A stretch of 64,000 bases of DNA from an uncultured Planctomycetales bacterium (GCA_964474085.1 CAYYRJ010000014.1:603-64602); one strand, 5' to 3'. Counted from the stretch's first letter, positions 3,001 through 56,584 are shown. Numbers and translations are program-made. Notes: generated by a model not told the origin, from the letters alone.

Positions 3001-6000
3001 TCTGGAAGCGATCGGTCTAGATTTAGACGGCACGCTTTATCACAATGCAGAGTATAGCCAACAATGCAGGAGCCTTGGTTTGCAATTTATTGCGAAAGAG
3101 AAAAAGATCAGCTTGGATATAGCGCAAAGGCAGTTTTTGAAAGCCAGAAGCAAGATGGCTTTAGAAATCGGCCATCAGCCGGCGGCGATGTATGTCCTTC
3201 CCCAATTAGGGATATCAATCGCCGAGTGGGAAAAATATTATAATGAGCACATGTTCCCTGGGAAATATATTGTTCGTGATGAGCGTTTGCAGGAGTTATT
3301 AATCCAAGCGCGCAGTTACGGGCTTAAGATCTTTTTGTTGACCAATAATACACGCACCCAGACGATCCAGATTTTAGCGGCCTTGGGGATCATTGATCTT
3401 TTTGATTTGGTGATTACCCGCAGTGAATTGCACGCGCCTAAACCTAGTCCTCGCGCCTTTGAGGCTGCAATAGAAATATTAGGTGTTATGCCGAGACGTA
3501 CGATTTATCTGGGAGATAGTCATGATATGGATTGTTCCCCTGCCCTAAAGGGTGGTATGCGCGCATTATGGGCGCCGATGGAAAATGGAAATATCTATTT
3601 TGCTCTTGAACAAATTATTAAATGGATGGTCATAGAACATCGCAAGCGCCAAGAAGATCCTAATTGGCAGGGGCTTGTTATGGAAGATTTAAAAGAAGCG
3701 ATGTCTCAAAATCATTTTGCGTCGAGTCCCCGCGCCTCCAGCGCGGCAGTGGATTATGTCGAGTTGCGCGCAAAAGGATTATTGTCGGACCCCGTTGTGG
3801 TGACAGTGGTTTTTGCTAAGGGGCAGTTAAGGGTAAACACGGTTGATCGGATGCGGCAAGACCAAGAAGCTTTAGTGGCTGGCTTTAAACAACAATTAAC
3901 AGCATGGTTATCGAAGTTCTCCGGCGCTCCGCCTTTGCCGGAGAACATAACGTTGCAAATTTCACTTATTTCCTTAAGATCAGGTGAAGTTTTTAGAGTT
4001 ACCCCGCAGGGCTTACAAATTAATCAAGCTGTTATCAATCTTCCCAAAATTCTTTCACTTCATATTTTAAATTATATCTTTATAAGTTATTTGACCTCGG
4101 ACGACGATGCTTTTGCCGCTGACTTGCAGTCGTTTGAAGGGGGCTATGCGCAAGGGCAAGTTGCATTAAATGTCGTTGAATTTATCGAGGCTGCTAGACA
4201 GTATCGTCTTGTTTTATCGGAACGTTTTGAATCGGCTTTATTAAATTTAGCTGTCAAAAATTTGTATGGTCATCTTAGCGGGAAAGTGCGCGGGTTTATG
4301 TTTACGGATTCTCAAGGTCAACCGGGGATTTACGCCGGATTTCCAAATTTTCCAAATGAGTGGGGACGGGATACGCTTATCACCCTTTATGGGTTAATGA
4401 GTTTGGGCGAAAGGCAGTTGTGCCTTGAAATTATTCTTAAGTGGGCGCGTTTGGTTGATGTTCGTCGAAAAGATGGCCGATTGATGCCTAATGGAATGGG
4501 CAATTGGAATACGAGCGATGCGCCTTTATGGTTGATTTTAAATGTTGGCGAATATGTGCGCAGGTTTAAAAATAGTACAGTTTTGGATGTCCCAATGACA
4601 GCTGACGCTAAAACTTTACGTGATGTTCTTCGGGAGATTGTTTTGCGTTACGCGATGACCAAAAAGGAACTTTCTGCTAATGGTATCGACGAGAACGGCA
4701 TTCATAGTGATAAGGCAACGGGCTTTATCTGGTCACCTAAGCAGGCGACATGGATGGACACAGTTAATACGCACCGTCAAGGTTACCCGGTTGAAATTAC
4801 CGCCCTTTGGTATGGCGCGCTGCGGACGATGGCGGATATTGACAGTGAATATTCTAATCGCTACCAAGAACTTGCGCAGAAAGTAAAAGAAAACTTTTTA
4901 TCTTACTTTTGGAATGATTCAGAAGAATGTTTGTTTGATATTTTAGGTACCGCCCATGTTGATAAAGCCATGGATGCAGTCAAGGATCCAGCAGTTCGTC
5001 CGAACCAGATTTTTGCGGTTTGGACAGGATTAGTCGACGGGCAAAAGGCGGATGAAATTTTAAAGAAAATTTACAGTGAATTATTGCTCCCCGGGGCTTT
5101 GCGTAGTCTTGCTCGTCCGGTAAAAAGATATCGTAGTGATTTTGATGCGCCCAGATGGCCTTATGCCGAGTATCAACCGTTTTATGAGAGTCAACAACCG
5201 GTGGAAGTTCGTGATCGCGCTTACCATAATGGAACCGGCTGGGTGTGGTTATATCCATTTTTTTGGGTAACGGCTGTTAACAGCGAGGCGCGTTTGTCAT
5301 ATACGAATGTTGACGATGCCTTATGGACCATGGTCAATGATTTGACCCGCTTGAGTCATGACCGGGATGAAAACACTTTCGGCTCTCTTCCTGAGCTTGT
5401 TGATGCGACAGCGTCTATCCTCAAAGATGTTCATGGGACGGAGTATCTCTATGCGCATCCTAAAGGATGCCGTCAACAGGCCTGGAGCGTGGCTATTTCG
5501 CTTTGGGGATTAGCCCAATTGGCGCAAAAGTACGGGATCGTCCTTGAGGATATCGAATTTCGACAATTTGGTTCAACAATAAAATATGTTCGTATAAATC
5601 CTGCTGCCGGCGAGAATGTCGCGGTTGGCCCTTATGAAACAATTTCCGTTGATATTATAGTTGAAACAACCGGCCCAGCTTGCCGTGAAGAATTAAAAAT
5701 AGAACTTTTTACGAACATGGATCATCCTGACGTCTGGCAGGCGATCTCTATTGATCCATCGAAGATTAGTTTAGTTTCTCAGGGCATCATGGGGAATGTT
5801 TATCAGGCGCGGATATCTATTGCCCCTCGAAATATTGGGCCTTTTGCTTTGACGGCACGGGCTCAATTTATTTATCAAAATCAGCCGACATGGGTTGGCG
5901 GTGATGTTCTCGTGATGGTTTATCGTTTGCCCAAATGGCTTTTAGCGCAGCGCTATCACCCGAGTTATATTTTTATTCCCGACATCCTCAAGGAAGGATG

Positions 6001-9000
6001 CTCTTTGAATTGGACAGGTTTGTTGGATTATTTAAGAATGCAAAAACAAAAAACCGGTAAAAATGTATTTTTCTTATCGCCGTTTTTTCCGACGGCAGAT
6101 GAATCACCGTTTGCGGCCATTTCTGTTTATGCGTTGAATCCTTCACTCGTTGACTGGGCGGCGGTTGAAGATATCGGAGCTAATCCTTTCGAAAAATTTT
6201 ATTCTTTTCGCAAACTCGCAACGGCTGCAAGAAGAGAAGCCTTTGCGCGCTTAGCTGCACACGAAGAAGTTGAGCGCTACGCCAGTTTAGTGCAGCGCTC
6301 TATTCTTGAGGGACAAGATTTGGTTTATGGGAAGTCTTACGAAAATATTAGTTTATTGAATCGTCAGGACATCCATGAGTTTCTTATGTATGAACAATTT
6401 GTCGGTTTTGAGCAGCTGCATATTTTATTAATGGAAAACGGCATTCGTATTTTGGGAGATTTGCCATTTTTCCGTGCAATTAACGGAACGGATGTTTTTT
6501 ATAGAAAAGATTACTTTGCTCAACTTTCCGGCGAGATATTGAGTCCCGGGTTTAAGGACCCTTGCGGCGGCAATGAACAGATTTGGGGGGATTTGGCGGC
6601 ATGGGACGAGAGAAGGATCGAACAGATGCGTGACAACGGCGAGTTTGATCCGCGTATTTTACCGTTTATATTTTGGGACAGTGTTTTTGCTCAGGTTTTC
6701 GAAGATCCTATTCATAAAATATCTGGATGGCGGCTGGATGCATTTCACTTTTATGGTCGCGGCTCTTATGCCGAAAATGCCCAACGGATTGTTTGGTCGA
6801 CGAGACTTTGGGATGACGTCGCTTTGTATTTTCAGGAGCATGATCTTTTGGCCATGGTTGAACAATTAGGCGGGGATGGGCACGCTTATTTTCATCTTAA
6901 CGCGTTGGGGTATTTGCAAATTGCTTCTTTGTTAGACAGCGTCCCTTGGAAGACGGTCGAGGCTTTTTATGCCGAGCTGCTTAATGTTACCCGCGGAATG
7001 TCTTATACCGTTGTTGACACGCATGACACGGCTCGGTGGGCTGCTGAATATAGCGGTGATTTTAAAAGGCTTGGAGGCCTTAAAGACGTTAAGTCTTCAC
7101 TTGAATTGTTTGGTCCTGCATTTTTGGGGCTTTTACTTTTAGGCCCGCAAATGGAAGGAGTTTTATTAAGTTTAGGTGAAAAGGGAACATTGGCGCCCAT
7201 TAAGAGAGAAGAACGCCGGGGCGGAGTTGTGATCCGTTCTCTCTGGGGAACCAGCGAACTTGGAGAAGTTGATTTTTCTGATGTGGTACGCAAGTGCGTT
7301 GATATTCGAGAAGCGCATCCGGCCATCAGTCATTCTCGAATGATACCCGTGACGACAACAGATGCAAGCGTTAAGGCTTTTTTGAAAAAATGGGAGAATG
7401 ATATTCTTTTGATTATGGCGAATTTTAGCAGAGATCCTAAAGATATTACTGTTGTGCTTTCCCGTTTTCATTTGGGTTTGGAATTGCCAATTTTCTTTGG
7501 CCGGCCTGTTACAGTAAAAATAGAGGATCTTATTGATGATCATGGTAATTCGGTTGTCAATCTTGGTTTGCAGGATCGGATAAATTTTAATCCTCGTCTT
7601 CTTCCCGGAGAGTTCGCGGTTTTTTCTATTGAAAGTAAAATTGCTTCGGACAAAGCTTCTTCAACAGTTTTAGACAAAGAGTTATTGCAAGTTTTAGGGT
7701 ATCGAAAGCGGCATATTTTGATTGTCACCTCCGAGGCGGCGCCGTTTTCGCAAGTCGGAGGTGTCGCCGATGTTTTAGGGGAAGGCGCTCTTCCGTTGGC
7801 TTTAGCAACGCTGGGAAATGACGTTACGGTCGTGACGTATCTTTATAACGGCATTGATCAAGAGGAGCATGGCATTAAAAATACGAATCAGACGATAAGC
7901 GTGCAGATCGGTTCTCGCGAGGAAAAAATGGCGGTTTACAAAAAGGCGATAAAGGTTGGGCAGGGGAGCTTGACCTATTTCTTTTTGCGGCATCCTGTTT
8001 ATTCGTATAAAGCTTGTATTGAAGCTATTGAAATCCACCGGACGGTTGCTGAATACGATCGCTTTGTAAACGAAGGGGTCATCAGCCAAGGACTGGCAAG
8101 CGAAGATACGTATCAGTCTTTAATGACGAGAGTTAGAGAAATCGGATTTAGAAAACTCGATCAACTTGATCAGCGGCATCTGATTTCGCAAGAACAGTGG
8201 CCGACGATTTATCAGATTCATGGATATATGCATCAGCTGGCTTTAGAACAAGTGCTTGCTTTATCAAAGGGAGCGTTGGAAATCGGGATGGGTTTTGTGC
8301 AGACTGTTGACATTGTGCATGTGCATGATTGGTTGGTCGCCATGACTTTGATGCTTATGCGCCGGCATTCCCGTTATGAACAAGCTTATCACGGCAAGAG
8401 AAGTATTATGACGATTCATAATCTAGAACATCAAGGAAAATTCAATATTACCCTCTTTGATTTGCTGGGGATTAATCGTGATGCTTTGAGTTTAAGCGGA
8501 TTAAGAGACGGGGAACGGGCCATTGAGGCCGCGGAGTTTGAGGGAAATTTGAATTTGCTTAAGATCGGGTTAGTTTATGGTCTGATTAACACAGTCAGCC
8601 CAACATATGCTTTAGAAATTTTGACGCCTGAATTTGGAGAGCGGCTGGATGGGTTTTTGAAATACTTGTCGAGCATAAGAGGAAAGATTAGAGGGATTAT
8701 CAATGGTGTTGATTATAGTCTTTGGAGTCCGCATGTGGACAAGTATTTGGCGCAGCTTCAGGGCGATGGGCGCTATTCGCCTGAAAATATGTCTGGAAAA
8801 AAACTTGCGAAAGCAGCACTGCAGAAAGAATTTGGTTTGGCGCCCAGAGAAGATGTTTTTGTTTTAGGTGCGGTTTCACGCTTGGTTAATCAAAAGGGAT
8901 ATGATTTGGTTGTCGGGATTGATCCTAAATTTTTAACACAAGATATTCAGCTGGTCATCTTTGGAACTGGCGATGTTGGGATTCAGGAAAAATTACAGCG

Positions 9001-12000
9001 TCTGATGGCCGCTTATCCGGGCAAGGTCAGTGTCAAGTTTGGATTTGACAGCCGGATCGCGCATTTGATTATGGGCGGATCAGATGCGTTTCTTATGCCT
9101 TCGTATTATGAGCCTTGCGGCTTGACCCAGCTTTATAGTAAGCGTTATGGGACACCGCCGGTCGTTCATCGCACGGGTGGGTTGGCGGATACGGTTAAAG
9201 ATGAGCAGACGGGATTTGCTTTTGAACAATACTCAACGCAGGCGATGCAAGGCTCAGTATCGCGTGCGCTTGAAATTTATTATCACGACAAAGATCGCTG
9301 GAACCAGATGATGCGTCGTATCATGGCAGAAGATTTTTCATGGAATCGGGCAGCGGAAGAATATGTGCAGTTGTATGAAGAAGCTTTAAGCGCATCCTCT
9401 AACATTATCGTTGAGATTGACGCGCGTGCGCTGGGGATGCGGCTTTCGCAAGTTTCGGATGAGTATTTGGATTGGCTTAAAAGTTTAGGTTTTAATGCGG
9501 TTTGGATTAAAGGAATATGGCAGCGAAGCCCATTTTCACAGGAAGCGATGACGCATTGGGGAAATCATCACCATGAAACTTTGCGTCGTTGGCATTCGGC
9601 GTTTGATGTGTATCGTTATGCGCCGGATCCCAACGTCGCTGCTGACGAGGACGAGGTTATTGCGTTTGCCCAAAGGCTTAAAGATCGCGGCATGATTTTG
9701 ATTCTTGATTTTGTGACCAATCACATTGCCATGGATTCACCGGAAATTTTAAGAGTGGAAGGATTAGCTACAGTTTATAAAAGTGACAATGATTATATCC
9801 GAGCTGTTCGCCAAGAGTTTGAAACTTTGCGAGGAAAGTCTGATACGGAAATTCTCGATTTATTAAATGATCGTTGGCTTTGGCATTTTTATCGGCATCC
9901 GCTTAATCCTAAGATGATTGTTCGTCGAGCTAAAGAACATTCTTTGGGCCCAGCGATGACAAGTTTAGCTCAGATTATGCTCATCAATAAAGAAGCCCGC
10001 CAATTTATGATTAAAGAAGTTTTGGCAACGATTGCGCGTTTGACTTTAAACGGCGGCATGAGAGCGGATTTGGCGTATTTAGGGTTATGGCTGCATATCC
10101 GCAATACCTGGGGTTGGCATTTGTCCGACGAAGATATTCAGAAAAAGATGCCAAGAGAATTTTGGGATGAATTGATGCAGGCGGCTCATAAACAATATTC
10201 TGAAATGATTTTTTTGGGGGAAACTTATGAGGCCGATTGGCACATCGAATTTGAGCAGTGGAAAGGTCGGGCAGGCCGTTTGCAGGAATTTGGGGTCGCT
10301 ACATATAACAAAGTTATTCTCGATTTGCTGCAGAAGGGTGATATAGCCAAGCTGCGCGGATATGTTTTTATCGATGCCCCGAGGGAGTTTATAAGAAATA
10401 GTGTTGTGTTTACACAGAATCATGATGAGTTGCCGGCGCTGGATGCTTTCGGAAGTCTTGATCGGACTTTGGCCGCAGCGGTTATCTCTTTTTTGGTTGG
10501 CAGCGAGTATGTCCTTCTTCCTTTGGCACAAATTTTGGGAATGCGCAGACCACAAGGCGTTAATATTGAGATGAAATCCCCCGATGCGGGTATTTATGAA
10601 TTTTATTATCCATCACGGGAAGATGCTGACCAAAGAGTTTTAACGGCCTTTGAAGAAATTTTACCTGTCTTGACTCGATTGATATTAAGAGGCAGGTCTT
10701 ATAGTGCAAGATTAATTAATCCAACGCAAGATCAGTTGGGTGGACTTTTCCCAGTGGTTTTTCATAATGACGCTGAGGATGCTTTTGCTATTGTCAATTA
10801 TTCTGATCAAGGGAGAAATGTCGTCGCCGACATAATGGATATGGATTATCCGTCCAATCCTCAGCAGACGATCAGTGGTTTTGATAAAGATAATATTGAA
10901 ATTTTAAAGTCCACCGGTGTTCAAGTTGTCATTCAAGGCAATTTGGTTTATCTGGAGCTTCCTCCGTATGGGTACGCGAGCGTTGTGTTTCATAAATCGC
11001 CGGTTCTCAGCGGAGCCTCTTCGAGTCTCATAAATCTTTATGACCAGGACATTGAATTTGGGCTTAAGAGTGGGCGTTTGTTTGAGGTGGAATTGATTCC
11101 GGATTTCTTTTCGCATCGTGACCAATATTATGAAGACGAAATTATTACTGCTGGGCTTTCTTACGAAAATTCACGAGATTTGTCACCGATAGCCGTTATT
11201 TTGTTGCAGTATATTCTTAATCTTTTTGTTGGAGAGAATGAAACACCGCGTCTTTTAGAAACCGGCTTGGGTGCAGGTTTTGGTGTTTCGCAGATGCGAA
11301 ATATTGCTCGTCGGATGTCGATTCCTGTCAATATCGAGGCCGGCGGTTTAACGCCGATTGCACCACGCTATCTTTGGGCAGAAGGGATGTCAATAAGTGC
11401 TCTTAAAAAGTTGATTTATCAATATGTGAAAGATCATCCCAACAGCTCTCTGCCGGGATTAGAAGAATATAGGACAAATGTCAAGCAAAGGCTAATAACG
11501 CAATATTTGTTTGATCAACAAATTACAGATGTCTCTTTAATGCGGCTTCACGAATATGCTTGGCGTTTTAATCATGAATCAGAAGAATTTGCCGATGCTT
11601 TGAATATTCCTTTAGAAGAAGAAATCGTCAACGCGGCAATCAAATGTTTAACGATCAATGTCCCCTTGGCGCTGGCGATTGCTTTACAGCAACAAGGATA
11701 TAAAGTATTTGAATTTGTAGACGATAATTCTATTCCAAGACAAATTATCGGAAGATTTACAATCGCTTCGTCTAAGATGACAGCCGGTCAACATTTTATC
11801 CATGACAGTCTCGGCGGAGTTTATTACACCTTTAACCATGCTCGTTCACGGCAAGAAATTAAAGAGACTTGGGTTGCTCTAAGAAGGTTATTGCATCCCC
11901 AGGGGATTCTGATGTTTTCAGCCTGTTATTACATTGGGCACATTATTGAAACAGCGCCGCAAGATTTCTTTGCCGTGGCAATGGTTGACGAGCAAAAGAA

Positions 12001-15000
12001 TTCGACATTATTCTTTTTTAAAGTCAGTCGTCACTATCAGCGTGCGATGGATATTTTAAGCGCAATTAAACACAGCCGGCAAGAAAATATTGTCAAGTTA
12101 TCCGGCGGCGAAATTGATATTTTCTTAGATCGTTTTACAGCCAGCTCGTTGCTATCTTCCCTAAATATTAAATGGTACACATTGCCCAATGGCGAGAAGG
12201 TCCCCGTCGATATGGATGAAACGATTTCGAATGAAGCGAAGAAAATAAGGGATTTTGTTTTGACGCTTAACTCGGCATTTCAGGACTTGTTGAAAGCTCA
12301 GGAATGGTATCCGAAGGTTTGTGTATTAGCGTCACTGATTTTAGCCCAACTCTTGTCGATAAAATTTGGAAATGATATTGAAACCGAATTTATCAATGGC
12401 TTATCAAGACTTGGGAACGACTCTCATGTTTGGTTAGAGATAACAGTGATTACGACCGGCGAAAGATTTTATATTAGTTTAACCGACGGACAATTTATTT
12501 CAGGCTTAAAAGGAACTATTGTGGATTATTCAACTATTGATTCTGTTGAAGAATTACGAGATCAATTGCCGTTATGGATTTTTGGCAAAGTATATTCTCA
12601 AGCCGGGTTTGATTTTGTGAGGTTTAAGCGTCTTGATGAGCATTTTTCACCTGCGCAATTTTATCATTCTATAAAGACTGTTTACATCCCGTTGGTACCT
12701 TTAACTCACCATTATATTATGCTGACGACTCAGCTACAAAACCGTATTAGCGACTGGCTTTCGCTCGGTGTAAGCCAAGATGTGCAATTAAGAATGCCGA
12801 CCAATAATTCGCGTTTAGAGAAAATTGTATATTTGGTTGAACTGTTGCAGGCGCAGAGCACTGCAAATAAACGCGTTGCCGCCTCGGCGGTAAACTCTTA
12901 TCAATATAAACCTGGAGTAAAGGTTACTGTTTGGGAGGCGAATTTAAATAATTATCAAACACATATTATCGTGGCAAAGAATTTAGCAGGACGTTTGTAC
13001 CCCGTTGATCGACGCAGTAATACGTTATATTGGCAAGAAGGGGAGTTTAAAACCAGATTAGATAAACAAGCTGTGCGTTCGCGGGTTCCTTTGATAGAAG
13101 AATTGATGAATGAATTTTTAAGAGAACATCCTGGCTCTGAGATTGAAACAGTAACGGGAAATGAAAATCTTTTTTATAATGCTCCGATCGTTACTTTGAT
13201 AGGCGATAAAATTTATTATGCAATAGGTGAAGATGTCCAAGCACGTAATTATCCAATGTATGTCGTTTGGCCGGATGGCCGTAATACGATTGAAGAAAAT
13301 GTCACATTTAGGTTTTTAGGCGAGGATAAACAGAGAGTTCGAGTCTATGTTGACGGGAATACCGCTTCGGTCAATTATGCCACAGTTGTGCAGTTGATAA
13401 AGAATGAGAAAGGTTTTGTTTATCCGAACCCTCAAAATGGTTTAGCGTATTTTTATGACGACATTAAACATTTGTTTTCTATGCCATTCTTTGGCTATGA
13501 GCATCATGGAGTCAGCGGGTTAATGAGTGATGGTATTTTCTTTATGGCGGACCAGTTTTTGACTGATAAAACGCGAATAAACCGCTATTTTGCTGAGCCT
13601 TTTACCAAGCAAGAATTTAATTTAACTGCGGCATTGATTGACCGTCGTGGTCGGGAACTTGAGGGAGGCTGGAAAATCGCTCCAGACTTGTTGCGTGATG
13701 GTCTTTCAAAATCAGGATATGTTCCAGATGACTTTGAAATTGATTCTGTTAGGAATGTGATTTCTATCCGTCTTAAGGAAAGCGTATATCCTTTTCATAT
13801 TGTTGGTGTTACTCAATCGGGTAAGGTTAAGGAGATTGTTGTTGAGGGGCTTTCTGGTCGTATAGGGGTAAGCATCCGAGAAGCGGCGAAGCTTTCTGAA
13901 AAAGAGGGATTGGTAAAAGCAGGGATTGTCGACCAGGGATTAACTGTCCGCTTGGATGTTGACGGAGAACCTATTGTTAAAAGTATGGTTGATGCTGCAG
14001 ACCCGCTTGGACCGCATGCGACTTCTTTAATTGTCTATGTGAAGAAAAATAATCAGATAAGATCTTCTATGGGTTTGGTGATCAAAAATCAAATTACTCG
14101 TCAAGGGTTCAGCGACTTATTGACGGACAGAAACGCCAGCGCGCCTGTGACCGGCCCGCCGGTAGAGAATTTTATTGCTTCTGCATCGAGCTTATCTTTA
14201 GCTGTCAGCTTCGGCAGCAAGCTTATGCCAACGTCAAGAAAAAGTATTAACTTAGAGCATTGGAGTGCTAGTTCGAGTGTTGATTTAGAATATGTTTTGA
14301 AACAAGGAGGAGTTGAGCTGATAGAAAATAAGACTGGAGTAGTTATTGTTGTGGCGACAGTTGAGGCTTATCAAAGGATTTATCAATCGGCGGGGATGAT
14401 TAAGTTAGGTGAAGAACAAAAGGAAACATTATCTTTTAGTAAATTTCTTACTGTCGATGAACTTCGAAGGGTTTTGTATGTGATTGTTCCGTTTTTAGGA
14501 AAAGAAAGTATATGGCGGGATCTGTTTTGGACAATGCGAAATGAACTTTCGGATTACTTCGCAAAAAATGGCCAGTGGCCACTCACGGTTTCTTTAATGA
14601 GTTTAGCCCAGCGCATTATGATTTTTGTTAATGGTTCAGATTTAGGGCTTCCGGGTGTTCATGACACGGTAGTTGTTAATTCTTTGCATCATTTTATAAA
14701 GTTTTACCGACAGTATGCACAAGGAGCCATTTATAATCCATCAGATAATATCCTCGGGTCTTCTTCTTACAGCCATACTAAACTTTTTAGTTGGATTTAT
14801 TTTGTAGAAAATAATGTGGTGCAGGGTTTGTTACGTCAAGGCCTAGAGAATATTTCGCTTCTGGATTTGGGATCGTCGTATGGCCATTCATTGTTAGTCA
14901 AACGTGTTATTTTGCAGGATGCGCCGGTACGGTATTTCGGAGTCGATATTCAGCCGGATTTGCTTGGAGCTTCTACTCGGTATGTGATGCAACAACAATA

Positions 15001-18000
15001 CGATAATATGATTTTTTCTAAAGTTGATGTTGAGATTCCTAATTGGAAAGCTCGCGTTTTTGCATTAAATTCTGGGAATCTTTTTGATGTCGTTACGGCA
15101 AGTCATTTATTAGAGCATCTTGATTCAGCCGAGTTGGTTGAAACAATTTTAAGTTGGTTAAGTTTGGCGAAGAAAGCGCTCATTGTTTCTGTGCCATTTG
15201 AACAGAAATTAAGCCATATCTCGCAGCATAAAACATTCTTTAACCCAGAACGGTTAGGGGCTTTGGCTAAGACAGTAAGCCAAAAGGCAGAGCATAAGTT
15301 TATTGCGCATCTTCAACATCTTAACTCAGGGATTGTCGTTTTTAGTGCATCGTCCACGATCTTGGAAGGTGTTGAGGATGTCATAAGTTATTATAATTCC
15401 TTAGATTCAAACAAAAAGTCTAAATTGCGTTTTGATCTTGCCGAATTGCTAGTGGCTAATTATTTTGATTCTCCTCAAGAAGTTGAGTCAATATTTCGGC
15501 GAATTTTTCAAGACGAGAGCTTAGATTTTCAAACGGCAATTTTTGCTTTGAGGGAAATTTTGATTCAACCGATGGCCAGCTCATTGTGGGTTTTAGAAAA
15601 CTTAAACAAGAAATACGGTATACGTATTACAGTTTCTGATCTGATCAGAATTTTTACGGCTTTTCAAGGAAATCATGTTGTCCAAGATATTATTCGTTTC
15701 AACAGTTCTGGATCAAAAGTGTTAGCGGTTGCTCGCGGAGTTATGCTTAAGAAGAAATCTACCACATATTATTTTGATGTTCAGACAACGGATACTTGTC
15801 CGTCTCTTTGTACAAAGTGCTGGAGATATTATCAGGATGATGGGGGGGTCGCGCATCTGATGCCTCGAGAACATCCCACCAACTTTGTGAGGCCATCTTT
15901 TACTGATTTCCAGAGGGTCTTTCATCAGGCTATTGACTTAGGAGTTGAGAGTATCGCCAGTACGGGTGGAGGAGAACCATTTATGAATTTGCAGTTGCCT
16001 GAATTATTGGCGGATGCTAAGGCTTATGCAGTTTCAAAGGGTATTAATCTCCGAGTGTTCGTGCCGGTTAGTGGGCTTGGACGCGTTTATAATGATCCTA
16101 AGAAGTTGGAATTAATTATTAACACGGTAGATCTTTTGCGGTTTAGTTTCGACAGTTTTGATAAAGATTTTGTTATGAAAAATCATGGGGTCAGTGAGGC
16201 TGGTTTTAACATGATGCTTAGGAATTTTCGTAAAGTTGTAGAATTAAAACATCACTTGCAATCTAATATCGACATTGAAGTGTTGATTTTGTTATATCGA
16301 GGGAATTATCAACACGCTGAGACAACTATTGAGAAGGCTTATGAATTGGGGGCAACGCGTGTTTTGATTAATTCAATAACTGGGAATGATGCAGTTGCGA
16401 TGGATCAAGAAGAAGCCAAGTTAAGCGCTAGAGTTTTACGGCGTATTTATGAACGTTTGGCTAATGGAGACTTTGGGGTGATGCAAATTGATTTTGATCC
16501 CGTCTTGATGGGAGGGTATGCGAACATTTCTCAAGTCGATCGAAATAACTTAGAACGACCACTCGGGAATATTCGTTACTGTATGAAAAACGTCTTTGGA
16601 TTAACTCCTGTTGTTACTGCAGATGGCACTTTTCATGTTTGCTTTCCTTGTTCTCAGCCGAATATTGCTAACAGACAAGATATTTTTAAGATTGGGAACA
16701 TTATGGAGGATTCAATAGAAGCTCTAGTTGCTCGCATGCGAGATAATTATCGTGATATTGATCCCGAAGAAGATTGTATTAAAGATTGCAGAGATATCCC
16801 ATATTTTAATGGGATTTTTCGTAAAGTAATTGAGGATATTTTATTAGGTATTCCGGTAACGGCACAACCATTTTTAGACCGTAGCGATCCGAAATTGATT
16901 GTTAGCCATACTCTGCATTCGGAAGTTTTTAATCAAGGAAATTTGTCTGAAGTTATGGATGAAATGAATGATGCGAGCCGTCAGGTATTTAATGATAAGG
17001 TTTCAGATTTTAAAGAATCTGTGTTGTTGATTGAGCAGGGAAGAGTAGCATTTGATCCTAATAACCTCGCAGAAGGCGTTGTAGCGCTACTGTTCGACAG
17101 GTATCAGACAAGAAATATTTTTGATATTCATGCAGTTCGATGGGAAGAGAAAACGTATCTTTTTTCTTACGACATTAGTATGCTTTATGAATTAGGGAGC
17201 AATGAATTTATAGATTTTATTGACGTTGATCGGTTGCCTGCTATTGCGCAAGATTTCTTTAAAGATTTACACCGTAAGCAATCAATGGGGGATATCTATA
17301 TTGATGATTATCCGGCACTGTTTTCAGAGAATTTCCCTCGGATACGGCGTGCAAATACACAGCCTGTTAATGTTACATTTTATATGAAAAGCAGTTTATC
17401 CTCCGACAAATCAGCTTCTAGTGGAATAAAATCAGAAAACGTTGCTGCTAACCAAAGGTCGCACAGTTTATTGCCTCAGCCAAATGCCAGCTCAGCTTCA
17501 ACGGTAATGTCTGTGGTTGCCCCAAGTTCTGGCGAAAACCCATACGTATCTTTTTCTGATATCCAGCGACTGCATTTGCCATATGGTGAAAATGTTTCGT
17601 TATATGGTGATTATTCGAAGATTTCCAAAGAAGCTAAAGAGGTGAGAGATTTTGTTATGACGTTTAATCCTGCTTTTCAGGGTGCGTTGCGAGATGATGG
17701 ATTCTACCCAGCGGTTTGCGAGGTAGCGTCGAATATTTTAGGACATTTACTTTTAATAAAATTTGGTAATTTTGTTAAGGTTGAGACTGTTGTTGGAATA
17801 GGGGTAGAAGGAACTCATTTTGGGACACAGATAACAGTTATAAATTCTGGAGAAGTATTTTATATTAACGCGACGGACGGACAGTTTATTTCTGGGTTGA
17901 AAGGATTGCTCTTTAATCATTCAGATATCGATTCCGTCAGAGAATTATATAGGTCATTGTCGCCAAATCTGTCGAGGCAAATATATGCTCAAATGGGGTT

Positions 18001-21000
18001 TGACTTTGTAAGTTTTAGAAGGGTTGGGGAAAGTTTCTCGCCGTCTATGTTTTATGACTTTATATTTATTTTTGATTCTGTGGCATCCAGTTTTCCCGAC
18101 GATAATATTAGTATAAAGGTTATCAGCCAGCTAGAAAACCGTATTAGCAACTGGGTTTCGCCCGATGTAAGCCAAGATGTGAAATCAAGAATGCCGTTAA
18201 ATTATTCGCATCTAGAAAAAATTGTACGTTTGGTGGAGCTTTTGCAGGCGCAGGGCGCTGAAAATAAAATTGTTGCCGCTTCAACGGCCAAAGAGGCAGC
18301 AGCCCCTGAAGATTTAGTAGAATTCTCCGTCGAGCCAAACGCGAGCGCGCCTGTGACCGGCCCGCCGCGTTATGTGTTTTCTTCCACTGTTTTTCCTTCA
18401 AGTTCTTCGCCTCTCAAGCCTCGACAACAACACACAAAAAATTTGGATTCAAACAAGCCTTCTCTGCGGGTTTTAAAAGATATCCACAACGCAAGTGATT
18501 ACTATCGCCAATTGGTTGGAGAATTAGAAAAGCTGCTCGCCCGGATCGATAAACATAATCAAGGTTTACGCGGTCATAGTGAACGCACGGCTTTATACGC
18601 TTTAGTTTTAGCTGACAAGCTTGGGGCTGATCTTTTTGATGTGTATATTTCGGCACTTATTCATGATGTTGGAAAGTGCAGGATTAGCAATCATCTTTTG
18701 GACGGACCAACTTTAACGAAGAATAAATTTATTGTGTTAAAAACACACGTAAGCAAAAGTGGCGGGATATTAAAAGCAAGATATCCTCTCTTAGATAGGG
18801 ATTTCGCATTGGGTCATCGATATCATCATGTTCGTCCCGACGGGAAAGGTTATCCGAAGTTTTTTGGTAAACAGGTGAATGAAGTTGAGCGGCAAGTAGT
18901 CTCAATTGTTTCGGTAGCGGATGCCTTTGATGCGATGACGGATCAAAGGACCTATAATCAGCAGGTTTCGCCCTTGATCGCTTTACGGCGGATTTCTGAG
19001 GCAAGTGGAAAACAATTTGATCCGACGGTAACAGGCGCCTTAAATGCTTTGTATTTTAGCAATAGGTTTGACGTTGTTGAATTAGAGAATTTGCCGCTTT
19101 GGGTGACGTCGGTTCTGCATAAGATGCTTTTAATCCAAGTCCCTGAAGGTGCTTGCTGTTGGCCGGACAATTTGTTAAACGTAAAGTCTAGATCCAGCGC
19201 GCCTGTGACCGGCCCGCCGGCTGAGCAGTTTATCGTCGTCTCTGCTCCATTGTTCCCCTCTTCCAACGCAGTTAGCCATTTTACAGATCAAACAAGAATT
19301 TCTACAGATTTAAGTCCGCTTATTCTTAATGGCGTTAGTCCTAATTTGTTTAGAAATGTTAGCGAAGTCCATTTGATCGCCGCTGGCGGAGGTGGCGATG
19401 TGGATAGCGCGATTCTTCTGGCTTTAGGGTTGCGTCGAATTCTTGGCGAAAATATAAAGATTGTTATTTTTACCACTAACGTGAAACACGCTAAAGAAAA
19501 CCCTATGGGCTGGCCGCTTCCCGTCGGAAATATCATTAATATTAGAACTGGTCAGCCGATTAAGCCTATCCCGGGCAGCGAGCATATTTATCGCATTGTC
19601 CCCGGGCTTATTGTTCAAAACGAAATTTTGGATGATGCCGACCGACCGTATCGCGTCGAAGTCCCGCTTTCAGATAGTCAGATGGTTGCTCGTGGGCTTG
19701 CGCAAGGGATTGAACTTTGGATGGTAGATGTTAGCCAAAGTGCAAAAGATTTAGCCCAAGATTATTTACGCTCGCAAAGCGATGACGTTAAGAGAAAAGA
19801 GCGTGTTCTTATCAGTCTTGATGTTGGCGGAGATAGCCTTGCGCGGTTCCCGTACTCAATAACTTCACAGAATAAGCAAACGCATCCGGAGCGGTTTATT
19901 TGCTCGCCGGTGACCGACATGATTATTTTAAACATGGTCAGTGAATTAGAGCGAGTTTTACACGCAAACGTTTTCTGGGCTGTTTCAGCTTTAGGCGGTG
20001 ACGGAGAATCAACCCCAGAGGTGCTTGAGTATATGCGCGAATATTATGCCGCGCAAGAAATCGTCGGCGTTCTGGATAATATTCGTTTGTTTAATGAATA
20101 TATAACCCGTCAAGATGCCCTCGTTCTATATCAAGCGCTTGCGACGATACCCAGCGAAGTTTCAGGAAACCTTTTGAAACGTCTTTTTGCCATTTCTGGA
20201 CGGCTTGATGAAATTCGTGGATTAGTTGATCGGCAACAAAATGTAGACCTTAAGCGTTGGGTGATGAGCTCGCAATATTTGCAGCAAGGTTTTCATCCTC
20301 AACAAATGTTTGATGCCAATTATATGACGCAGGCCCTTGCTCCAGTATTGGCAGCTTCACTGAGAAATGGGACTCGTCGCGAGTTATTGTCCCAGGCGTA
20401 TCCACTCACGTTTTTCTTTCGTCCGTCGTCGATTGCGTCAAAAGTCCGTAATCCTGATTTTGGCAACGCAAGGCTTAATTGGAAACAAATGGAAAGGGCT
20501 GTGCGGGGATTTGGTTATACGACGGAAATATCTGATTCACAAATGATTTGCAAATTGCAAGAAGCAAAAACCGCTGTGGGTGTTGTTGCCGCTAGTTCGG
20601 TTCTTTCTTCATCAACCTTTTCTTTGCGCGAACTTTCGATAAATATCAAACAGGCGCAGTTGTTGTTAAAAGAACTGGGGCTTGTACACGAACTGGCCGC
20701 TAATGTGATCCAACCGCTTATGCAAGAAGTCGGCGCTTGGCAAGACAGAGAATTGCGAGGCGTATTTTATAGTTTACTTAAAAGTCAAGCTGTCCCTATT
20801 TTATCCGACGGAAAAATCATTTTTGAAAATACGCAGGGCGTTGGCATCGATGAGTACGGCAAGCTTACTGTTGATGCGAAAATTCGCGAAGGCTTAAAGG
20901 TAATCGGATGTGGCTGCGTCTTTGCGGACATGGACGATAATCTTGCCCCGAGGGAAAGTCCTTTCCCTGACGCAATCGTTAATGCGATTTTGGAATTGAT

Positions 21001-24000
21001 CATGCTAGGGATGATGCGCCTGCGAATTACGACGGACAATGAAATTGCTAAAGCGGTTTATCGTTTGGATGTCCTTGCCCCGCAACTGCGCTCGGAAATC
21101 ATCGTTTATGCGGATGGTTCCGGGAATATGTATTATTTTGACGCTAATCGCAGCCAGTGGGTTTTAGATCCCGCATACGCGCAAGGGATCGGTTCGTCAA
21201 TTAGTCCCGAGACGTATCAACTGATTAAGGCTCAGCTTTTTGACGAGTTTATTGAAGATTGGAAAGAATTTTTGATGACTCTTGCTGAGGCTTTAAATGA
21301 ATTTTTGCCACAAGAAAATTGGCCGTCCGACGAAACAGGCCTGCAAATTATTTTGGAAAAACTTGCTGGCGGACTTTTAAAGCCGATGCTCCGTGACTCT
21401 TCGCTGCGAGAACAGGCAGTTTCTGCTCTTTTTTCTAAAGATACCGAAAATTTCGTTGAGAGACTTTTACAGGAAGCAGAAAGCATCGACGAGCATGATG
21501 CCCAAAGACGATCTTCCTTTTTGCAAATGGTCGCTGTAGCAGAAATATTAAGAATTCTCAATTCAAACGATACCGCAGATAAAAAAGAGAAGAGAGATAT
21601 CATAGCTAATTTTATTACGCTCGACAATTTGAAGTTTCCGCTTAAAGACAGGATATTGGCTGTCACGTACCGTCAAGGTGTTCAGATTTCGCTTAAGGCC
21701 ATTCGGCCTAAATTGATTCATGACCTTTATGAAAGAATTCTTATTGATAAAATGGCTGCGCTTAAAGAATATTTTGGCGTTGAGTATCCGGATTTAAAAG
21801 ATTTGCAGTTAAGCAAAGCCAGCCGTACCACAATTAATATCAAACAAGGTCATGTCAATAAAGCAGGCCCGTTTATCGACGCTGTTGAGAATTCGGGGGG
21901 AATGCCCTTTTATATTCTTTTTACCGCTGACGATTTTTCAGGTAAGGGGGTCGATGTTCCCGTTGCGCAACTGTCCAATGATGTATCAGGGTATGAGCAG
22001 ATGATGATTTTAAATACTGATGAGCAGTTTTCGGATGCGGGTCTTTATCCGCGCGTGCGTTTGACAAAGGATATTGCTTTTCTTGAGGGTAAATTTGGTC
22101 CAGAAGCGAATGCCGCGATTTATCAGAATCTGGCAAAAAATATTGGAGAACAGCTGCGTATGCTTTTGGCAAATCCACAGTCACAGCCACAGCCGGCTAT
22201 GGAAATTTTACGCTATGACCTTGGATTTGACTCAAAGGTTGAGCAATTTACCCGGTATTCCCGTCGGCGATCGCAGTTATTAAGAATTTTCAGTGAAGAC
22301 CAAGAGCTTGTTGATCAATATTTACAAAGGTCTAAAATTTCTTTAGGTTTAAACAGGCTGCAGGTGGAAAGCGGAATTTTTGATCCTTCTTTGGCCGAAG
22401 AGAGCCAAAAAGGCGCCGATTCTTATATGCAAAAAGATGCGGCAGTCGGTCTGTGCATGGGCGGCGGAACCGGAATGCTTACGGTTATTCAGGCGATTCT
22501 AAAAATTGTCCCGCCAGAGCTGAAAATTATCGGTGGGGTCACTTCAACTGATGACGGAGGTTCGAGTTTTGCAATTGATAATGATTTAAGAACTGCCGGA
22601 TTTGGCAGGCCGCCTGCTTTGGGGGATTTGATAGGGGCTTTGCTGCAAGGGCTTGCTTCACCGGATAAAATTTTTCGTCTTTTAGACCCGCAAGGGCGGG
22701 TGCAAATGACCAATGAACAATCTCGAATGCCAGAATCTGATATGGAAGGTCATTCTTTTAGGGTAGGACAGCCTGTTTTTTACGACGATCAGTATAACCC
22801 GATTTATCTAAAAGATTTTAAAGAGCTGATTATTCGTTCCCTTAATCGTATTGTCCGGCAATTTTTACATCAAGATAGATTAAGCGATGATTTTGTTTTT
22901 TTTGCGGTGAGTTTTTTGAATCTTGTTGAGCGCTTGGAGCCCTATTTAGAAAAGGGATATATCGGTTTGCCGGGTTTAAGCATCCGTAATCTTTTGCCGA
23001 TAGGCGCTATGGATTATATGGGACTTATAGATCTCGACAAGCCAAAATATAAATCAGCCGTAGGTAAGCCGATTATTTCTAACGAAAAGGATATGCGCCG
23101 TTTTGAAAAAGGTCTTGATCTTATCGCGCAGATGATGGGTATTACCCAAGGCCGCGTGCGGCTTTCGCATCTCTATCCGGGCACGCTATATGCACTTTAT
23201 CAAGATTTTGTAATTCTTATCAGAAATTCTGTATCGCAAGAAAATATTATCCTTCTTGTCCGTCGAGAAAATAAAAATTGGCTGGTTCGTTTCTGGGAAA
23301 AAGATGAAGAATACAAAGTCAATTTTTCAAGCCATCGTGTCGAGATTCCCTTAACAAGCACTTTGACCGCGAATTTTTCAGGCCAGCAAAATAGCTTTTA
23401 TTTTTCAATCAATACCGGTTACGGATCTCTGCAGGTACTCGAAAGACCGCAAATGTCCGAAAGTCTTGTCGCCTACCAAAGTAAAAAGTATCAGATGTCT
23501 ACGGATGGAACAGGGCTTCTGCAGCTTTCAAATAAGAGAAACTCCCGTCATAAAGCTTTGTCAATCAACGGTCATACGGTCTATATTCGTAATCGTTTTG
23601 TCGCGATGCAGACGCATATTACGGAGACAGCAAATTTTTCTAGAATTGTTGGATTTGGTATTGCGACAGCAAAAAGTTTTAATGGCCGCAATGCGTATAA
23701 GCCGGATTCTCAAAAACACTTGGCGGCTAACAGCGGATTCTTGAAAAATATTCTTTCCGAGAACACTCGCTTTATTACCTTTGGTCCCGGTTCGCTGTTT
23801 ACAAGTTTATTGACTCATTTTCTCGTCGGTGGATTGGCTCAAGCTTTGGCTGGCCGCTGTAAGCGTGCGGATATTCCCATTGTTCTGTTTTTGGGGCCCG
23901 TGCTGGATAATGAAAGTTTTGGATATCGGCTATTAGATCTGTTGGAATATATTGAAAAGTTATCAGGATTGCGTTTTGATAAAAATCCTATTTTTACGGA

Positions 24001-37582: not shown

Positions 37583-37621
37583 CGCAACCATAATTTGAAA
37601 TTTCCTATCAACACTCGACAA

Positions 37622-40600: not shown

Positions 40601-40780
40601 AAGCAGTTGAGTGCGCAAGACGGTTCCTCCAGCGGGAAACCGACAGATTATGCTTTGACAGAAGAACGGTTAAAAGATGCGCAACAACGCCTAGAGATGG
40701 TTGAGAAAATTTTGCGTGAAAAAGATGAGCAGATCCAAGAATTAGAGAAGCAATTAAACGGGGTTTTATCAGCGTTCTGA
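37622..40780 (+). CDS. Secreted K/E/Q-rich coiled-coil protein with N-terminal signal peptide and a TPR-like segment
   Basis: MTMNKKLYLLFACISFFLFSSASAHA signal. NYELAIKEFNKALLADPDNEDALMYL is TPR-like. The rest is charged low-complexity with coiled-coil heptads. Track ORF starts at TTG 37595, only 13 nt after the -10, so ATG 37622 or 37628 is more plausible. Confidence 0.6.
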   Translation: MTMNKKLYLLFACISFFLFSSASAHANANLVTNYYVESGKKLFDEKNYELAIKEFNKALLADPDNEDALMYLRMLGLGSTDKDEIKTSREQGESSFEEKPNKKTKKNAPKPAASVKNNKDADLKIKQIKTQVEQEEKAAIESLRAQAAQEEQKISSSAASQKSADSDNKIEDVVKDQNQKVTEQKKLGHRPDVEQVACPGKNAVKENFSDAACKKLCCACAQKAQEAQEQNIIQEGSVDQQQSTLTNSQQEVKPAKTDIAGFELENKGSVCKKCSVCNKKAAKSVKNQKSKGKKVSDKVDAAAKTADVKKTPPVKAKNSGQSSSVSISQKQDADDLTQELQEAVDGPALLAVAKKDPSPVAAKEKEAATIAAIKADGVKQQSQIRKEFAEQEKRNIQQIHAKYKSKRIGKNEKAVLRDLDGDGVKERISSVENKAIEKMLATSAKKEKAALKDLDKKVLFKEKAEIKRLRTQSQKSKKEVSLKKVRAGDVVVDQPDIAAGDDEVSLEDQQNISQRKDIQIPVVDENTEPLVEASIEQALASPVDKKSAKKKPVLAKQPVKKKKQTDKEKALTETSLAKMQDVATQDDVLQEEPLAADASENLSSQKAEPLSVQEKGVGDSEKSLDNPSKTSRNKARDINSEQMDEPLQASRDLAQEEKALHEKFEQKKAALIEEVKKESQDVSSEKTLRPKEDQNSSSDNQQVESAEKVGQETLSAVLDSGKNEALKAVESENLVLKKKLAQVVEMAGQDQKTIKDLEKNITQKSEKAQILENDLVEAKQTIESKKEALKEQTAKMKDLQTRISAMEVDLHSKQYDFKDKQLEYEKKLQAIEEEFGNYKSEKAKNEEELQGQLKILKEALAKKIDELNEAQEKLIFVENKLEKSETARKATIKEYEDLKKTMSDLEGRLTGLPTEIKTDQLPVVSVDPKNLPKPKTSDEFMYQQWIARHDKLITKLKEKLLWAREQMDYLGRYDIKLSDQKMAALKEQLAAVKKQLSAQDGSSSGKPTDYALTEERLKDAQQRLEMVEKILREKDEQIQELEKQLNGVLSAF

Positions 40781-42173: not shown

Positions 42174-42204
42174 TCCTGTTCTGTTGAATATAAAATTGTG
42201 TGCG

Positions 42205-42335
42205 TTTTATCCGTAAGGATAATCCCGCGTCATATGCGGGAAAAGGGGAATCTCGTGAAAATCGGGAGCGGTCCCGCCACTGTGAATTTCGGATGTTTTT
42301 GATGCTCCGGAAAAGTCAGGTCGCCTAACGCAGCA
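42205..42335 (+). promoter_or_regulatory. Candidate cobalamin (B12) riboswitch upstream of the TonB-dependent receptor
   Basis: aaaaggggaatctcGTGAAAATCgggagcggtCCCGCCACTGTgaatttcgg contains the B12-box GCCACTG (42276-82). The preceding GGGAA...GTGAAAATCC...CCCGCC core matches the cobalamin riboswitch consensus. Position is in the 5' leader of a btuB-like gene. Confidence 0.6.
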
Positions 42336-42472
42336 CATTAAGCAAATTTTTCTGCGAAGACAGAAAACAAATGCTTACACCTTGGGGCTATAGACAAAAA
42401 AGGGTGCAATCCCAATTGATTTGATATCAGTTGGGATTTTTTATTTTTTTAGATCAAAAAACGGAGAAAACA

Positions 42473-56261: not shown

Positions 56262-56337
56262 GCCGAGATAGCTCAGTCGGTAGAGCGACGGCCTGAAAAG
56301 CCGTGCGTCCCCGGTTCAATTCCGGGTCTCGGCACCA
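56262..56337 (+). tRNA. tRNA-Phe (GAA), CCA encoded
   Basis: gccgagaTAgctcagtcggtagagcGacggcCTGAAAAgccgtgcgtccccggttcaattccgggtctcggcACCA. Cloverleaf with 7-bp acceptor, anticodon loop cuGAAaa. Confidence 0.9.
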
Positions 56338-56511: not shown

Positions 56512-56584
56512 GCTGGCGTAGCTCAGCTGGTAGAGCAGCGCATTCGTAATGCGCAGGCCGTCAGTTCAATCCTGACCGCCAGCT
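56512..56584 (+). tRNA. tRNA-Thr (CGT)
   Basis: gctggcgTAgctcagctggtagagcAgcgcaTTCGTAAtgcgcaggccgtcagttcaatcctgaccgccagcT. Anticodon loop uuCGUaa. No encoded CCA. Confidence 0.85.

Follow-up and report, generated by a model that had tools for sequence, protein, structure and literature searches.

A GC-rich 24-nucleotide linker core, repeated between enzyme modules of a giant bacterial gene, as a candidate site of module exchange

In a 64,000-nucleotide stretch of DNA from an uncultured Planctomycetales bacterium (GCA_964474085.1 CAYYRJ010000014.1:603-64602; the whole stretch is called the window below), a single open reading frame (ORF) encodes a multi-enzyme protein of 11,001 amino acids, and a GC-rich 24-nucleotide sequence, AGCGCGCCTGTGACCGGCCCGCCG, recurs within it three times without a difference. 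This 24-mer is the invariant core of an unstructured linker of about 20 residues, …DLφ…N-A-S-A-P-V-T-G-P-P-x-E-x-F-I…, which joins the enzyme modules of a mosaic giant gene. Restricted to this gene lineage, the motif coincides with a boundary at which relatives differ in module content. We favor the interpretation that the 24-mer is a shared crossover or gene-conversion core of the inter-module linker, and that the HD-GYP domain lying between the second and third copies is an in-frame cassette; we put the probability of this reading at roughly one half.

All three copies lie on the plus strand and in frame 0 of the ORF, encode SAPVTGPP at residues 4710, 6112 and 6396, and are spaced by 4206 nt and by 852 nt (284 codons), each distance being divisible by 3. 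These coordinates and the encoded peptide agree with the original prediction, in which the three identical copies had been noticed. None is expected by chance, as judged from 100 dinucleotide shuffles of the window, and no further site in the window comes within six mismatches of the 24-mer; the next-nearest matches are to the motif's own reverse complement, which points to dyad symmetry. At about 80% GC the motif stands out from a window of about 42% GC and from an ORF whose GC content at third codon positions (GC3) is 0.386. The ORF and the elements around the three copies are as follows.

11-33016, plus strand: single ORF of 11,001 amino acids encoding a multi-enzyme giant protein, with domains assigned by Pfam and NCBIfam
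14114-14176, plus strand: extended linker around copy 1, DLLTDRNASAPVTGPPVENFI, with flanks weakly similar to those of the other copies at the peptide and nucleotide levels
14138-14161, plus strand: motif copy 1 (SAPVTGPP, residues 4710-4717), between an unannotated module (residues 4292-4708) and the methyltransferase/radical SAM segment
14162-18343, plus strand: segment between copies 1 and 2 (1402 codons from start to start), with the methyltransferase, radical SAM, an ASSA linker (residue 5826) and module B2 (residues 5850-6088)
18344-18367, plus strand: motif copy 2 (residues 6112-6119), the direct repeat on the left side of the HD-GYP cassette, with a predicted local distance difference test score (pLDDT) below 50 in the structure model
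18368-19195, plus strand: HD-GYP cassette, with its folded core at residues 6150-6375 (nt 18458-19135)
19196-19219, plus strand: motif copy 3 (residues 6396-6403), the direct repeat on the right side, whose ortholog is the only copy in each of the relatives L001 and L002
19220-20605, plus strand: variable linker and then the DUF1152 module, common to L001 and L002; the DUF1152 part is 91-95% identical to L002 in nucleotides from about 19380 (one 150-nt block, 84%)
20606-22277, plus strand: in-frame module of 1671 nt, absent from L001 and present in L002, starting right after the linker VVAASSVL

Four motif contexts were compared, the three of the window and one common to L001 and L002. When these are aligned over 60 nt on either side, the invariant block is exactly the 24 nt. 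Residual similarity in the flanks consists of AAACGC(C/G) upstream in three of the four contexts and of x-E-x-F-I downstream. The upstream modules are unrelated in all four, save for their last 14-18 residues, LV[DE]xxxx(P)NASAPVTGPP, and three different modules follow the motif. The claim that the flanks are unrelated therefore stands except for this linker of 14-18 residues, with the module before copy 2 being 49% identical to residues 4052-4289, and the Ser-rich stretch said to follow every copy is present as described. The downstream flank of copy 3 is slightly closer to that of copy 1 (40 nt at 90%) than to its own L001 orthologue, which may be a weak sign of homogenization within the genome. 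The 24-mer is open in five of its six reading frames, yet, as read from the sequence, a single strand and frame is used in all four contexts, a constancy that fits in-frame homologous exchange and not random insertion. The repeat is not an assembly artifact, because copies 1 and 2 recur without a difference in L005, an independent JGI contig of the same organism that is 98.8% identical and shows many indels, and because the motif is also present in two metagenome-assembled genomes (MAGs).

Conservation of the peptide alone does not account for the identity of the copies. Given the codon usage of the ORF itself, three SAPVTGPP peptides would agree in all eight codons with a probability of 9e-10, and a single one would have exactly these codons with a probability of 1.3e-5. 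Repeated peptides elsewhere in the ORF, taken as controls, do differ synonymously (module B pair; 11-mer, 5/33 nt; 8-mer, 3/24 nt). Because of these probabilities, the divergence of the control peptides and the sharp 24-nt boundary within diverged flanks, the identity supports copying or constraint at the nucleotide level, as had been argued when the motif was first noticed; the shuffles, the codon-usage probabilities and the control peptides rule out chance and codon bias. A cluster of rare codons that causes pausing fits in part, because AGC, GTG and ACC are minor codons and so is the GCC found before the core in two copies. The consistent property is nonetheless that the codons end in G or C and not that they are rare, because no Ala codon is used more often than GCG and no Pro codon more often than CCG.

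The motif is extremely rare. A search of one genome for each of 185,579 species returned two exact matches, one copy each in MAGs L001 (labelled Planctomycetales) and L002 (labelled Omnitrophota), in both cases within giant ORFs that run off the fetched loci. The exact 24-mer has no match in the JGI metagenome contig collection or in the IMG/VR viral collection, and searches of the viral collection for relatives gave no match. When a profile of the four peptide contexts was run against 5.8 billion public proteins, it yielded two candidates sharing words with it, neither of which scored, and the SAPVTGPP peptide is essentially absent from that collection. Within the window the 24-mer is not dispersed: its three copies all lie in the giant ORF and none is intergenic. 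One condition under which the original prediction would fail, that the 24-mer is a generic GC-rich word common genome-wide, is excluded by this rarity, together with uptake-sequence, Chi, repetitive extragenic palindromic (REP)-like and miniature inverted-repeat transposable element origins.

L001 and L002 are the closest DNA relatives of the giant gene. Although their labels belong to different phyla, they are 95% identical to each other over 1.76 kb, and one of the labels is probably wrong. The L001 protein aligns with that of the window in four blocks.

L001 residues 384-609 with window residues 989-1220: 39% identity, HAD module
L001 residues 1098-1160 with window residues 1247-1309: 81% identity, beginning at ASSA in both
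L001 residues 1188-1876 with window residues 1855-2551: 47% identity, beginning after 'TASSV' in L001 and ending at 'IAASAV' and 'KASSTV', respectively
L001 residues 2123-2625 with window residues 6395-6855: 76% identity, beginning at the motif and ending at 'VVAASSVL' in both

In the interval that separates the last two blocks, L001 carries an unrelated module of about 246 residues, whereas the window has about 3,844 residues that comprise GlgA, the amylase, both B modules, the methyltransferase, radical SAM and HD-GYP, and the right edge of this window-only segment is motif copy 3. Other block ends fall on Ala-Ser-Ser linkers, at window residues 971, 1242, 2549 and 6860 and at L001 residues 375, 1093, 1185, 1872 and 2631. 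A short adapter, INLGSGRKPAEV, which precedes the ASSA at residue 971, is present in L001 as 92% identical DNA but in a different context. Downstream of the motif, L002 is collinear with the window for 1,680 residues at 80% identity; upstream of it, nothing in L001 or L002 can be aligned with the window. Both relatives thus carry the motif directly before the same DUF1152 module (76-80% identical in amino acids) and lack HD-GYP, and since the module upstream differs too, they do not form a simple plus/minus pair with the window. An ortholog comparison for the HD-GYP cassette had been proposed at the outset, and its outcome is divided: the absence of HD-GYP from relatives whose similarity begins at the motif speaks for a cassette, and the different upstream module speaks against a clean one.

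Nucleotide identity between the window and L002 is uneven, ranging from 62% to 99% in blocks of 150 nt. The tract at 21032-22080, inside the optional 1671-nt module, is 96-99% identical with third positions conserved at 0.94-1.0, and a tract of this kind within DNA that otherwise shows 62-90% identity implies recent exchange between lineages. Judged from these alignments, the gain and loss of modules and the 96-99% tract indicate that recombination is active in this gene. At copy 3, the island of perfect identity with L002 measures 28 nt, including CC upstream and GG downstream, and sits at the edge of a fast-evolving linker (19220-19380) in which identity falls to 50-69%, with indels and a length difference of 126 nt. 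Because perfect runs of at least 28 nt are common inside conserved modules, the conservation of the motif across lineages is notable only against the local linker. Third positions in the neighboring linker are conserved at 0.33-0.54, which gives, by our own calculation, about 0.002 for identity at eight of eight synonymous positions.

A search with the DUF1152 module found one stand-alone protein that is 38% identical (P0001) and one stand-alone metagenome locus (L004). These stand-alone homologues (P0001; L004, around 5000-5100) begin with a signal peptide, and the linker that follows the motif in L001 and L002 (AREIVGALAASFFFLTSPSFSASF; L001 6394-6500) resembles a degenerate signal peptide, which hints that the DUF1152 module was captured together with its 5′ end.

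The HD-GYP domain lies wholly between exact, in-frame 24-nt direct repeats. In an AlphaFold2 model of residues 6100-6425, built from an alignment of 53 sequences, the predicted HD-GYP fold occupies model residues 51-276 (residues 6150-6375 of the protein), mostly at pLDDT 80-97, and copies 2 and 3 (model residues 13-20 and 297-304) are predicted to be coil outside the fold, at pLDDT below 50. Low scores at the motif flanks are partly expected, because the homologues do not cover them. Since the Pfam match and the model core both fall between copies 2 and 3, the originally described arrangement of direct repeats around HD-GYP holds. The domain keeps every residue that does not vary among the 53 sequences, namely H/D positions and the GYP motif. 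The nearest homologues of the cassette are 31-40% identical, over the domain core only, and its composition (GC 0.42, GC3 0.377) equals the ORF average, so that nothing suggests a recent foreign source and a foreign origin was rejected.

The 24-mer belongs to a broader family of linkers. The giant ORF contains 17 linker sites of the Ala-Ser-Ser type (for example at residues 581, 971, 1242, 2549, 4290, 5826, 6860, 9095, 9338 and 9422). ASSA occurs six times in the giant protein against 0.35 expected, a 17-fold enrichment, and is absent from the other 9,394 amino acids encoded in the window; AASS or ASS[AVT] occurs 12 times against 1.2 expected. A related 8-mer, CCAGCGCG, had been reported to recur at junction-like positions. 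Its recurrence holds, with sites inside the ORF at 1755, 2925, 3738, 14136, 19194 and 28023 and eight in the window against 1.6 expected, but two of the reported positions, 2924 and 3734, were off by 1 and 4 nt, and the real unit is a 12-mer, GCCTCCAGCGCG, which encodes ASSA and occurs at three identical sites against 0.15 expected.

1751-1762, plus strand: first of the three GCCTCCAGCGCG (ASSA) linker cores
2921-2932, plus strand: GCCTCCAGCGCG (ASSA) linker core immediately before the HAD module, where homology with L001 breaks
3734-3745, plus strand: GCCTCCAGCGCG (ASSA) linker core at which L001 homology (81% in amino acids) begins

L001 has the same 12-mer at the orthologous site (3275-3286). 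Other ASSA sites are written in different codons, which implies that the tetrapeptide is conserved at the protein level and that the nucleotide-identical subsets are younger or homogenized. Around the 24-mer the codons are GCC/GCG/TCC-AGC-GCG-CCT…, which encode A/S-S-A and then PVTGPP, and the ASSA 12-mer likewise has GCC and the AGCGCG core; the 24-mer is a specialized or extended form of the general Ala-Ser-Ser linkers of the gene. It marks just three of at least 14 linkers of this type, and only the looser Ala-Ser-Ser core is general. Linker codons form a local GC3 island (0.69 versus 0.38; for Ala 0.77 versus 0.49 and for Ser 0.79 versus 0.40), in which the excess returns to background within ten codons on either side and persists when the PVTG sites are left out. 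This enrichment could result from GC-biased gene conversion at recombination spots or from selection for local structure.

In the mechanism that we favor, recombination of the homologous or short-homology type, with crossovers in the linkers, would add, remove, duplicate and exchange modules, and the GC-rich core of 24-29 nt would be the segment common to the recombining partners. The DNA on either side of the core would come from different parents, leaving unrelated flanks, while concerted evolution or gene conversion would keep the core identical and GC-biased repair would enrich G and C at its synonymous sites. Copies 2 and 3, by virtue of their spacing of 852 nt, would allow HD-GYP to be deleted or inserted in frame. 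We infer that the crossover falls within the core itself, and that it is recombination, rather than selection for an RNA or protein signal, that keeps the copies identical. This mechanism is preferred because it explains jointly why the block has a sharp boundary and unrelated flanks, why frame and strand never vary, and how the GC3 islands and the mosaicism arise. Among the roles that the original prediction listed, a site of recombination or domain insertion is the one to gain comparative support, from the junction in L001 and L002, the gain and loss of modules and the 96-99% tract.

Several observations weigh against recombination as the explanation. Just four contexts are independent of one another, three of them being those of the window and the fourth that of L001 and L002, and among the relatives examined, which include no alleles from the same species, no allele without HD-GYP between the same flanks was found. 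A length of 24-29 nt only just reaches the minimum for RecA-dependent exchange. The high-identity tract shared with L002 begins about 160 nt downstream of the motif and not at the motif. Breakpoints in linkers might reflect the survival of such recombinants only, which would not require the motif to promote recombination. The dyad symmetry of the core (11/14 pairs, P = 0.008) is left unexplained by recombination, which by itself also fails to explain the identity across lineages that differ by 12-17% elsewhere. Finally, identity at eight of eight synonymous positions, for which about 0.002 was calculated, would also arise from selection on the nucleotide sequence.

Such selection is the basis of an alternative that we consider unlikely but tenable, in which the motif acts as a signal through its bases, as an imperfect palindrome rich in GC that is under purifying selection and is read as DNA or as an mRNA hairpin. 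As DNA it could be the binding or core site of a dimeric recombinase, a nuclease or a regulator; as RNA it could be a point of pausing, protection or processing in a 33-kb transcript. The fixation of all eight synonymous positions in four contexts and two lineages, within a sharply bounded block, agrees with this proposal, as does the general occurrence of GC3 islands at linkers. When the flanking bases that usually accompany it are included, the core makes up an imperfect palindrome of 29 nt, GCCAGCGCGCCTGT-G-ACCGGCCCGCCGGC, in which 11 of 14 pairs are complementary (P = 0.0076 against shuffles of the same composition, with the best center taken). The RNA fold of the core has three 3-bp stems, two 1×1 mismatches and a 7-nt loop (-13 to -19 kcal/mol), and a hairpin of 9-15 bp is possible in every context, with different flanking bases lengthening the stem at each copy, for example at copy 2. 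Against dinucleotide shuffles, the hairpins score z = -1.0, -2.05, +0.3 and -0.3, so that their stability does not exceed what composition provides, and because the copies are identical there is no covariation to assess. The motif has no match in Rfam and no terminator-like or promoter-like pattern, which argues against this alternative in general and led us to reject a known RNA family, an intrinsic terminator and an internal promoter in particular. A tyrosine recombinase core site would have inverted arms around a spacer of 6-8 bp and a recombinase gene nearby. The core has arms GCGCGCC and GGCCCGC (6/7 complementary) around a 7-nt spacer, TGTGACC, and there is no recombinase, transposase or nuclease gene in the 31 kb beside the giant gene (19 neighboring proteins were scanned; the twentieth is MutS). 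Three copies here, and one in each related genome, are few for a dedicated system, and the strict constancy of frame and strand suggests a coding constraint.

In a further alternative, which we also regard as doubtful, the peptide itself is the signal. SAPVTGPP and the Ala-Ser-Ser linkers would then serve as a protease site, as a Gly-Pro-Pro arrest or EF-P-dependent pause at module boundaries, or as a rigid proline hinge, and the nucleotide identity would follow incidentally from a recent common ancestor of the linker copies. In favor of this alternative, the peptide does not vary, is in frame at every copy and lies in unstructured linkers, and ASSA is enriched 17-fold in the giant protein, with none elsewhere in the window. 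Pro-Pro dipeptides are scarce in the giant ORF (8 versus 16.7 ± 4.1 expected), yet three of the eight are in the motif copies. The consecutive-proline motif GPP is in all copies, where pausing would be a prediction from the sequence; G-P-P and A-G-P type sequences are stalling contexts (SecM, polyproline/EF-P), which also favors a peptide signal. West-Roberts et al., moreover, call the points at which giant proteins are cleaved unknown (10.1101/2023.11.21.568195). A peptide signal leaves unexplained why eight of eight synonymous positions are identical in diverged flanks and why only three of the at least 14 linkers are marked, and the near-absence of the peptide from public proteins shows that Omnitrophota giant proteins do not use it as a general signal. 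Neither Pfam (E up to 0.01) nor NCBIfam (E up to 0.001) detects a peptidase family in the giant ORF, and the only protease-like trace among the neighbors is a weak Lon_C match in a ComM/Mg-chelatase-like protein. Cleavage by signal peptidase I is opposed by the proline at +1 after ASA, which blocks the enzyme, and an AXA site for signal peptidase is ruled out by position and context. A sortase LPXTG signal was rejected since APVTG is not LPXTG, the sites are internal (residues 4710, 6112 and 6396 of 11,001) and no hydrophobic segment is near. A 2A-like 'StopGo' peptide was dismissed as the NPGP consensus is absent, the likeness being limited to G-P and an upstream DLL. A relic of a GTGA stop/start overlap between formerly separate genes is conceivable, with GTG in frame and TGA in the +1 frame, but upstream there is no Shine-Dalgarno-like sequence.

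We think it quite improbable that the dyad-symmetric core of 24-29 nt is a dedicated junction signal of the giant genes of this lineage, read by a specific factor or by the ribosome. Such a signal might direct site-specific rearrangement of modules, or might provide a break or pause through co-translational arrest, RNA processing or cleavage of the polypeptide. A miniature mobile element or the footprint of its insertion and excision, in which a palindromic unit of 24-30 nt was inserted in frame at three places, would agree with the high GC content, partial palindromy, sharp ends, unrelated flanks and five open frames, but it is very improbable and largely refuted already: the motif is not dispersed, with one copy in each of two related MAGs and none outside the giant gene in the window or in the other collections, its frame and strand are constant, weak peptide homology past the core on both sides indicates a diverged linker and not an insert, and there is no transposase nearby.

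The giant ORF that carries the motif contains at least 12 distinct families, none of them dominating, and long stretches without a family match. The following domains were assigned by Pfam and NCBIfam.

Residues 999-1187: HAD hydrolase
Residues 1433-1828: glycogen-debranching GDE_C
Residues about 2118-2171: GH77 fragment
Residues 2739-3124 (best stretch, 438.9 bits): GlgA glycogen synthase, full
Residues 3152-3410: alpha-amylase
Residues 4944-5055: methyltransferase
Residues 5258-5415: radical SAM
Residues 6179-6340: HD-GYP (Pfam HD_5/HD)
Residues 6456-6728: DUF1152
Residues about 7917-7982: CofD-like
Residues 8474-8705: 6-phosphogluconolactonase
Residues about 10,003-10,169: RelA/SpoT-like

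A near-complete glycogen toolkit (HAD, debranching enzyme, GH77, GlgA and alpha-amylase) is thereby fused to other enzyme modules in one ORF. Hydrophobic segments are few (four at a Kyte-Doolittle threshold of 1.8) and none is close to a motif copy. With more than 10,000 amino acids and many different enzyme Pfams, the ORF fits the 'multi-enzyme metabolic cluster', a class of Omnitrophota long proteins (10.64898/2026.06.07.730766). A module of about 180 residues is duplicated in tandem (nt 1817-2116 and 2363-2662; residues 499-763 and 670-945), with 83% nucleotide identity over 300 nt and 52% protein identity overall, and each unit has an ASSA/SSSSA linker followed by …P-x-x-YF-x-N-x-RLAD. The paralogous module B pair (residues 4052-4289 and 5850-6088; nt 12164-12877 and 17558-18274) is 49% identical, has no family match and gives just three weak matches among 1.84 billion representative proteins; both copies terminate in …LVELLQAQ…VAAS linkers.

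The neighboring genes are of a housekeeping kind (MutL, MutS, ferrochelatase, AccA, RlmN, a secretin and others). A cobalamin riboswitch (42186-42346, plus strand; 40.5 bits, above the gathering score) lies directly 5′ of a gene for a TonB-dependent receptor (42421-44466), and tRNA genes are located at 56262-56334 and 56512-56584. Two strong AT-skew anomalies on the plus strand are composition effects, one at 37595-40780, which encodes a Lys/Glu/Ala-rich, secreted-looking protein of 1,061 residues, and one at 44527-46683, which encodes a Phe/Leu-rich membrane protein of 718 residues; neither protein has a Pfam match.

By analogy, the closest precedent for module exchange at these linkers appears to be domain movement (DoMo) in restriction-modification specificity genes, in which target recognition domains (TRDs) are arranged as x-(TRD1)-y-x-(TRD2)-y and recombination takes place at the flanking repeats (Furuta et al. 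2011, PMC3077401). In both systems in-frame direct repeats surround a functional domain within one gene, the presence or placement of the domain varies, and recombination between repeats is inferred. The present repeat differs in being just 24-29 nt long and in lying in an unstructured linker rather than in a conserved structural region, and it separates unrelated enzyme modules, not paralogous TRDs, in a 33-kb gene where movement of the same module between positions was not observed. Polymorphic toxins offer a second comparison through their demarcation motifs, VENN in CdiA and PxxxxDPxGL in Rhs proteins. There a short conserved peptide and its coding DNA separate a constant part from swappable modules and mark the junction of exchange, whereas here we see no toxin/immunity logic or orphan cassettes, there are several internal junctions instead of a single C-terminal one, and the sequence of the motif bears no relation to theirs. 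REP elements and Rickettsia palindromic elements (RPEs) are short palindromic repeats, and RPEs are tolerated in frame in coding sequence. The 24-mer resembles them as a short, GC-rich, imperfectly palindromic repeat tolerated in frame; in contrast to them it is not dispersed, is much shorter than RPEs, keeps a fixed frame and strand, and is found only in homologous linkers of one gene family. Arrest peptides and EF-P-dependent pauses (SecM …GIRAGP, XPP) share with it a Gly-Pro-Pro placed where a pause would let the upstream module fold, but no upstream arrest determinants were recognized here, and the function of a peptide needs no identical codons.

The giant proteins of Omnitrophota (West-Roberts et al. 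2023, 10.1101/2023.11.21.568195; Nielsen & Lui 2026, 10.64898/2026.06.07.730766) match the one described here in size and in enzyme Pfams (starch synthase, GT1, HAD, radical SAM, methyltransferase, HD), and its closest DNA relatives include an Omnitrophota MAG; in contrast, this ORF has few hydrophobic segments. By term search, no junction or linker motif is described in the two texts: the words linker, junction and motif do not occur in that of 10.64898/2026.06.07.730766, nor 'linker' in that of 10.1101/2023.11.21.568195. The type of host gene and the principle of domain cassettes between recombining repeats are thus already known, and what is new, having not been described, is this junction motif together with the system of GC3-rich Ala-Ser-Ser linkers in giant genes of the Omnitrophota type.

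Omnitrophota encode the longest known proteins, and how their genes are assembled, and whether the products are used whole or in pieces, are standing questions (10.1101/2023.11.21.568195; 10.64898/2026.06.07.730766). In the gene analyzed here, enzyme modules are separated by recognizable Ala-Ser-Ser linkers, one type of which is conserved in nucleotides at a place where relatives differ in module content. The 24-mer and the GC3-rich linkers are searchable handles for mapping module boundaries; they permit recombination-driven shuffling of modules to be tested in hundreds of complete genomes, and they point RNA-end mapping, ribosome profiling and proteomics to defined sites. Even if the motif proves to be only a relic of recombination or gene conversion, it would document a domain-cassette mechanism in a new setting. 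Should it instead turn out to be a junction signal, it would be the first signal for processing or assembly to be defined in the giant proteins of Omnitrophota, and would make the expression and building of giant ORFs directly testable.

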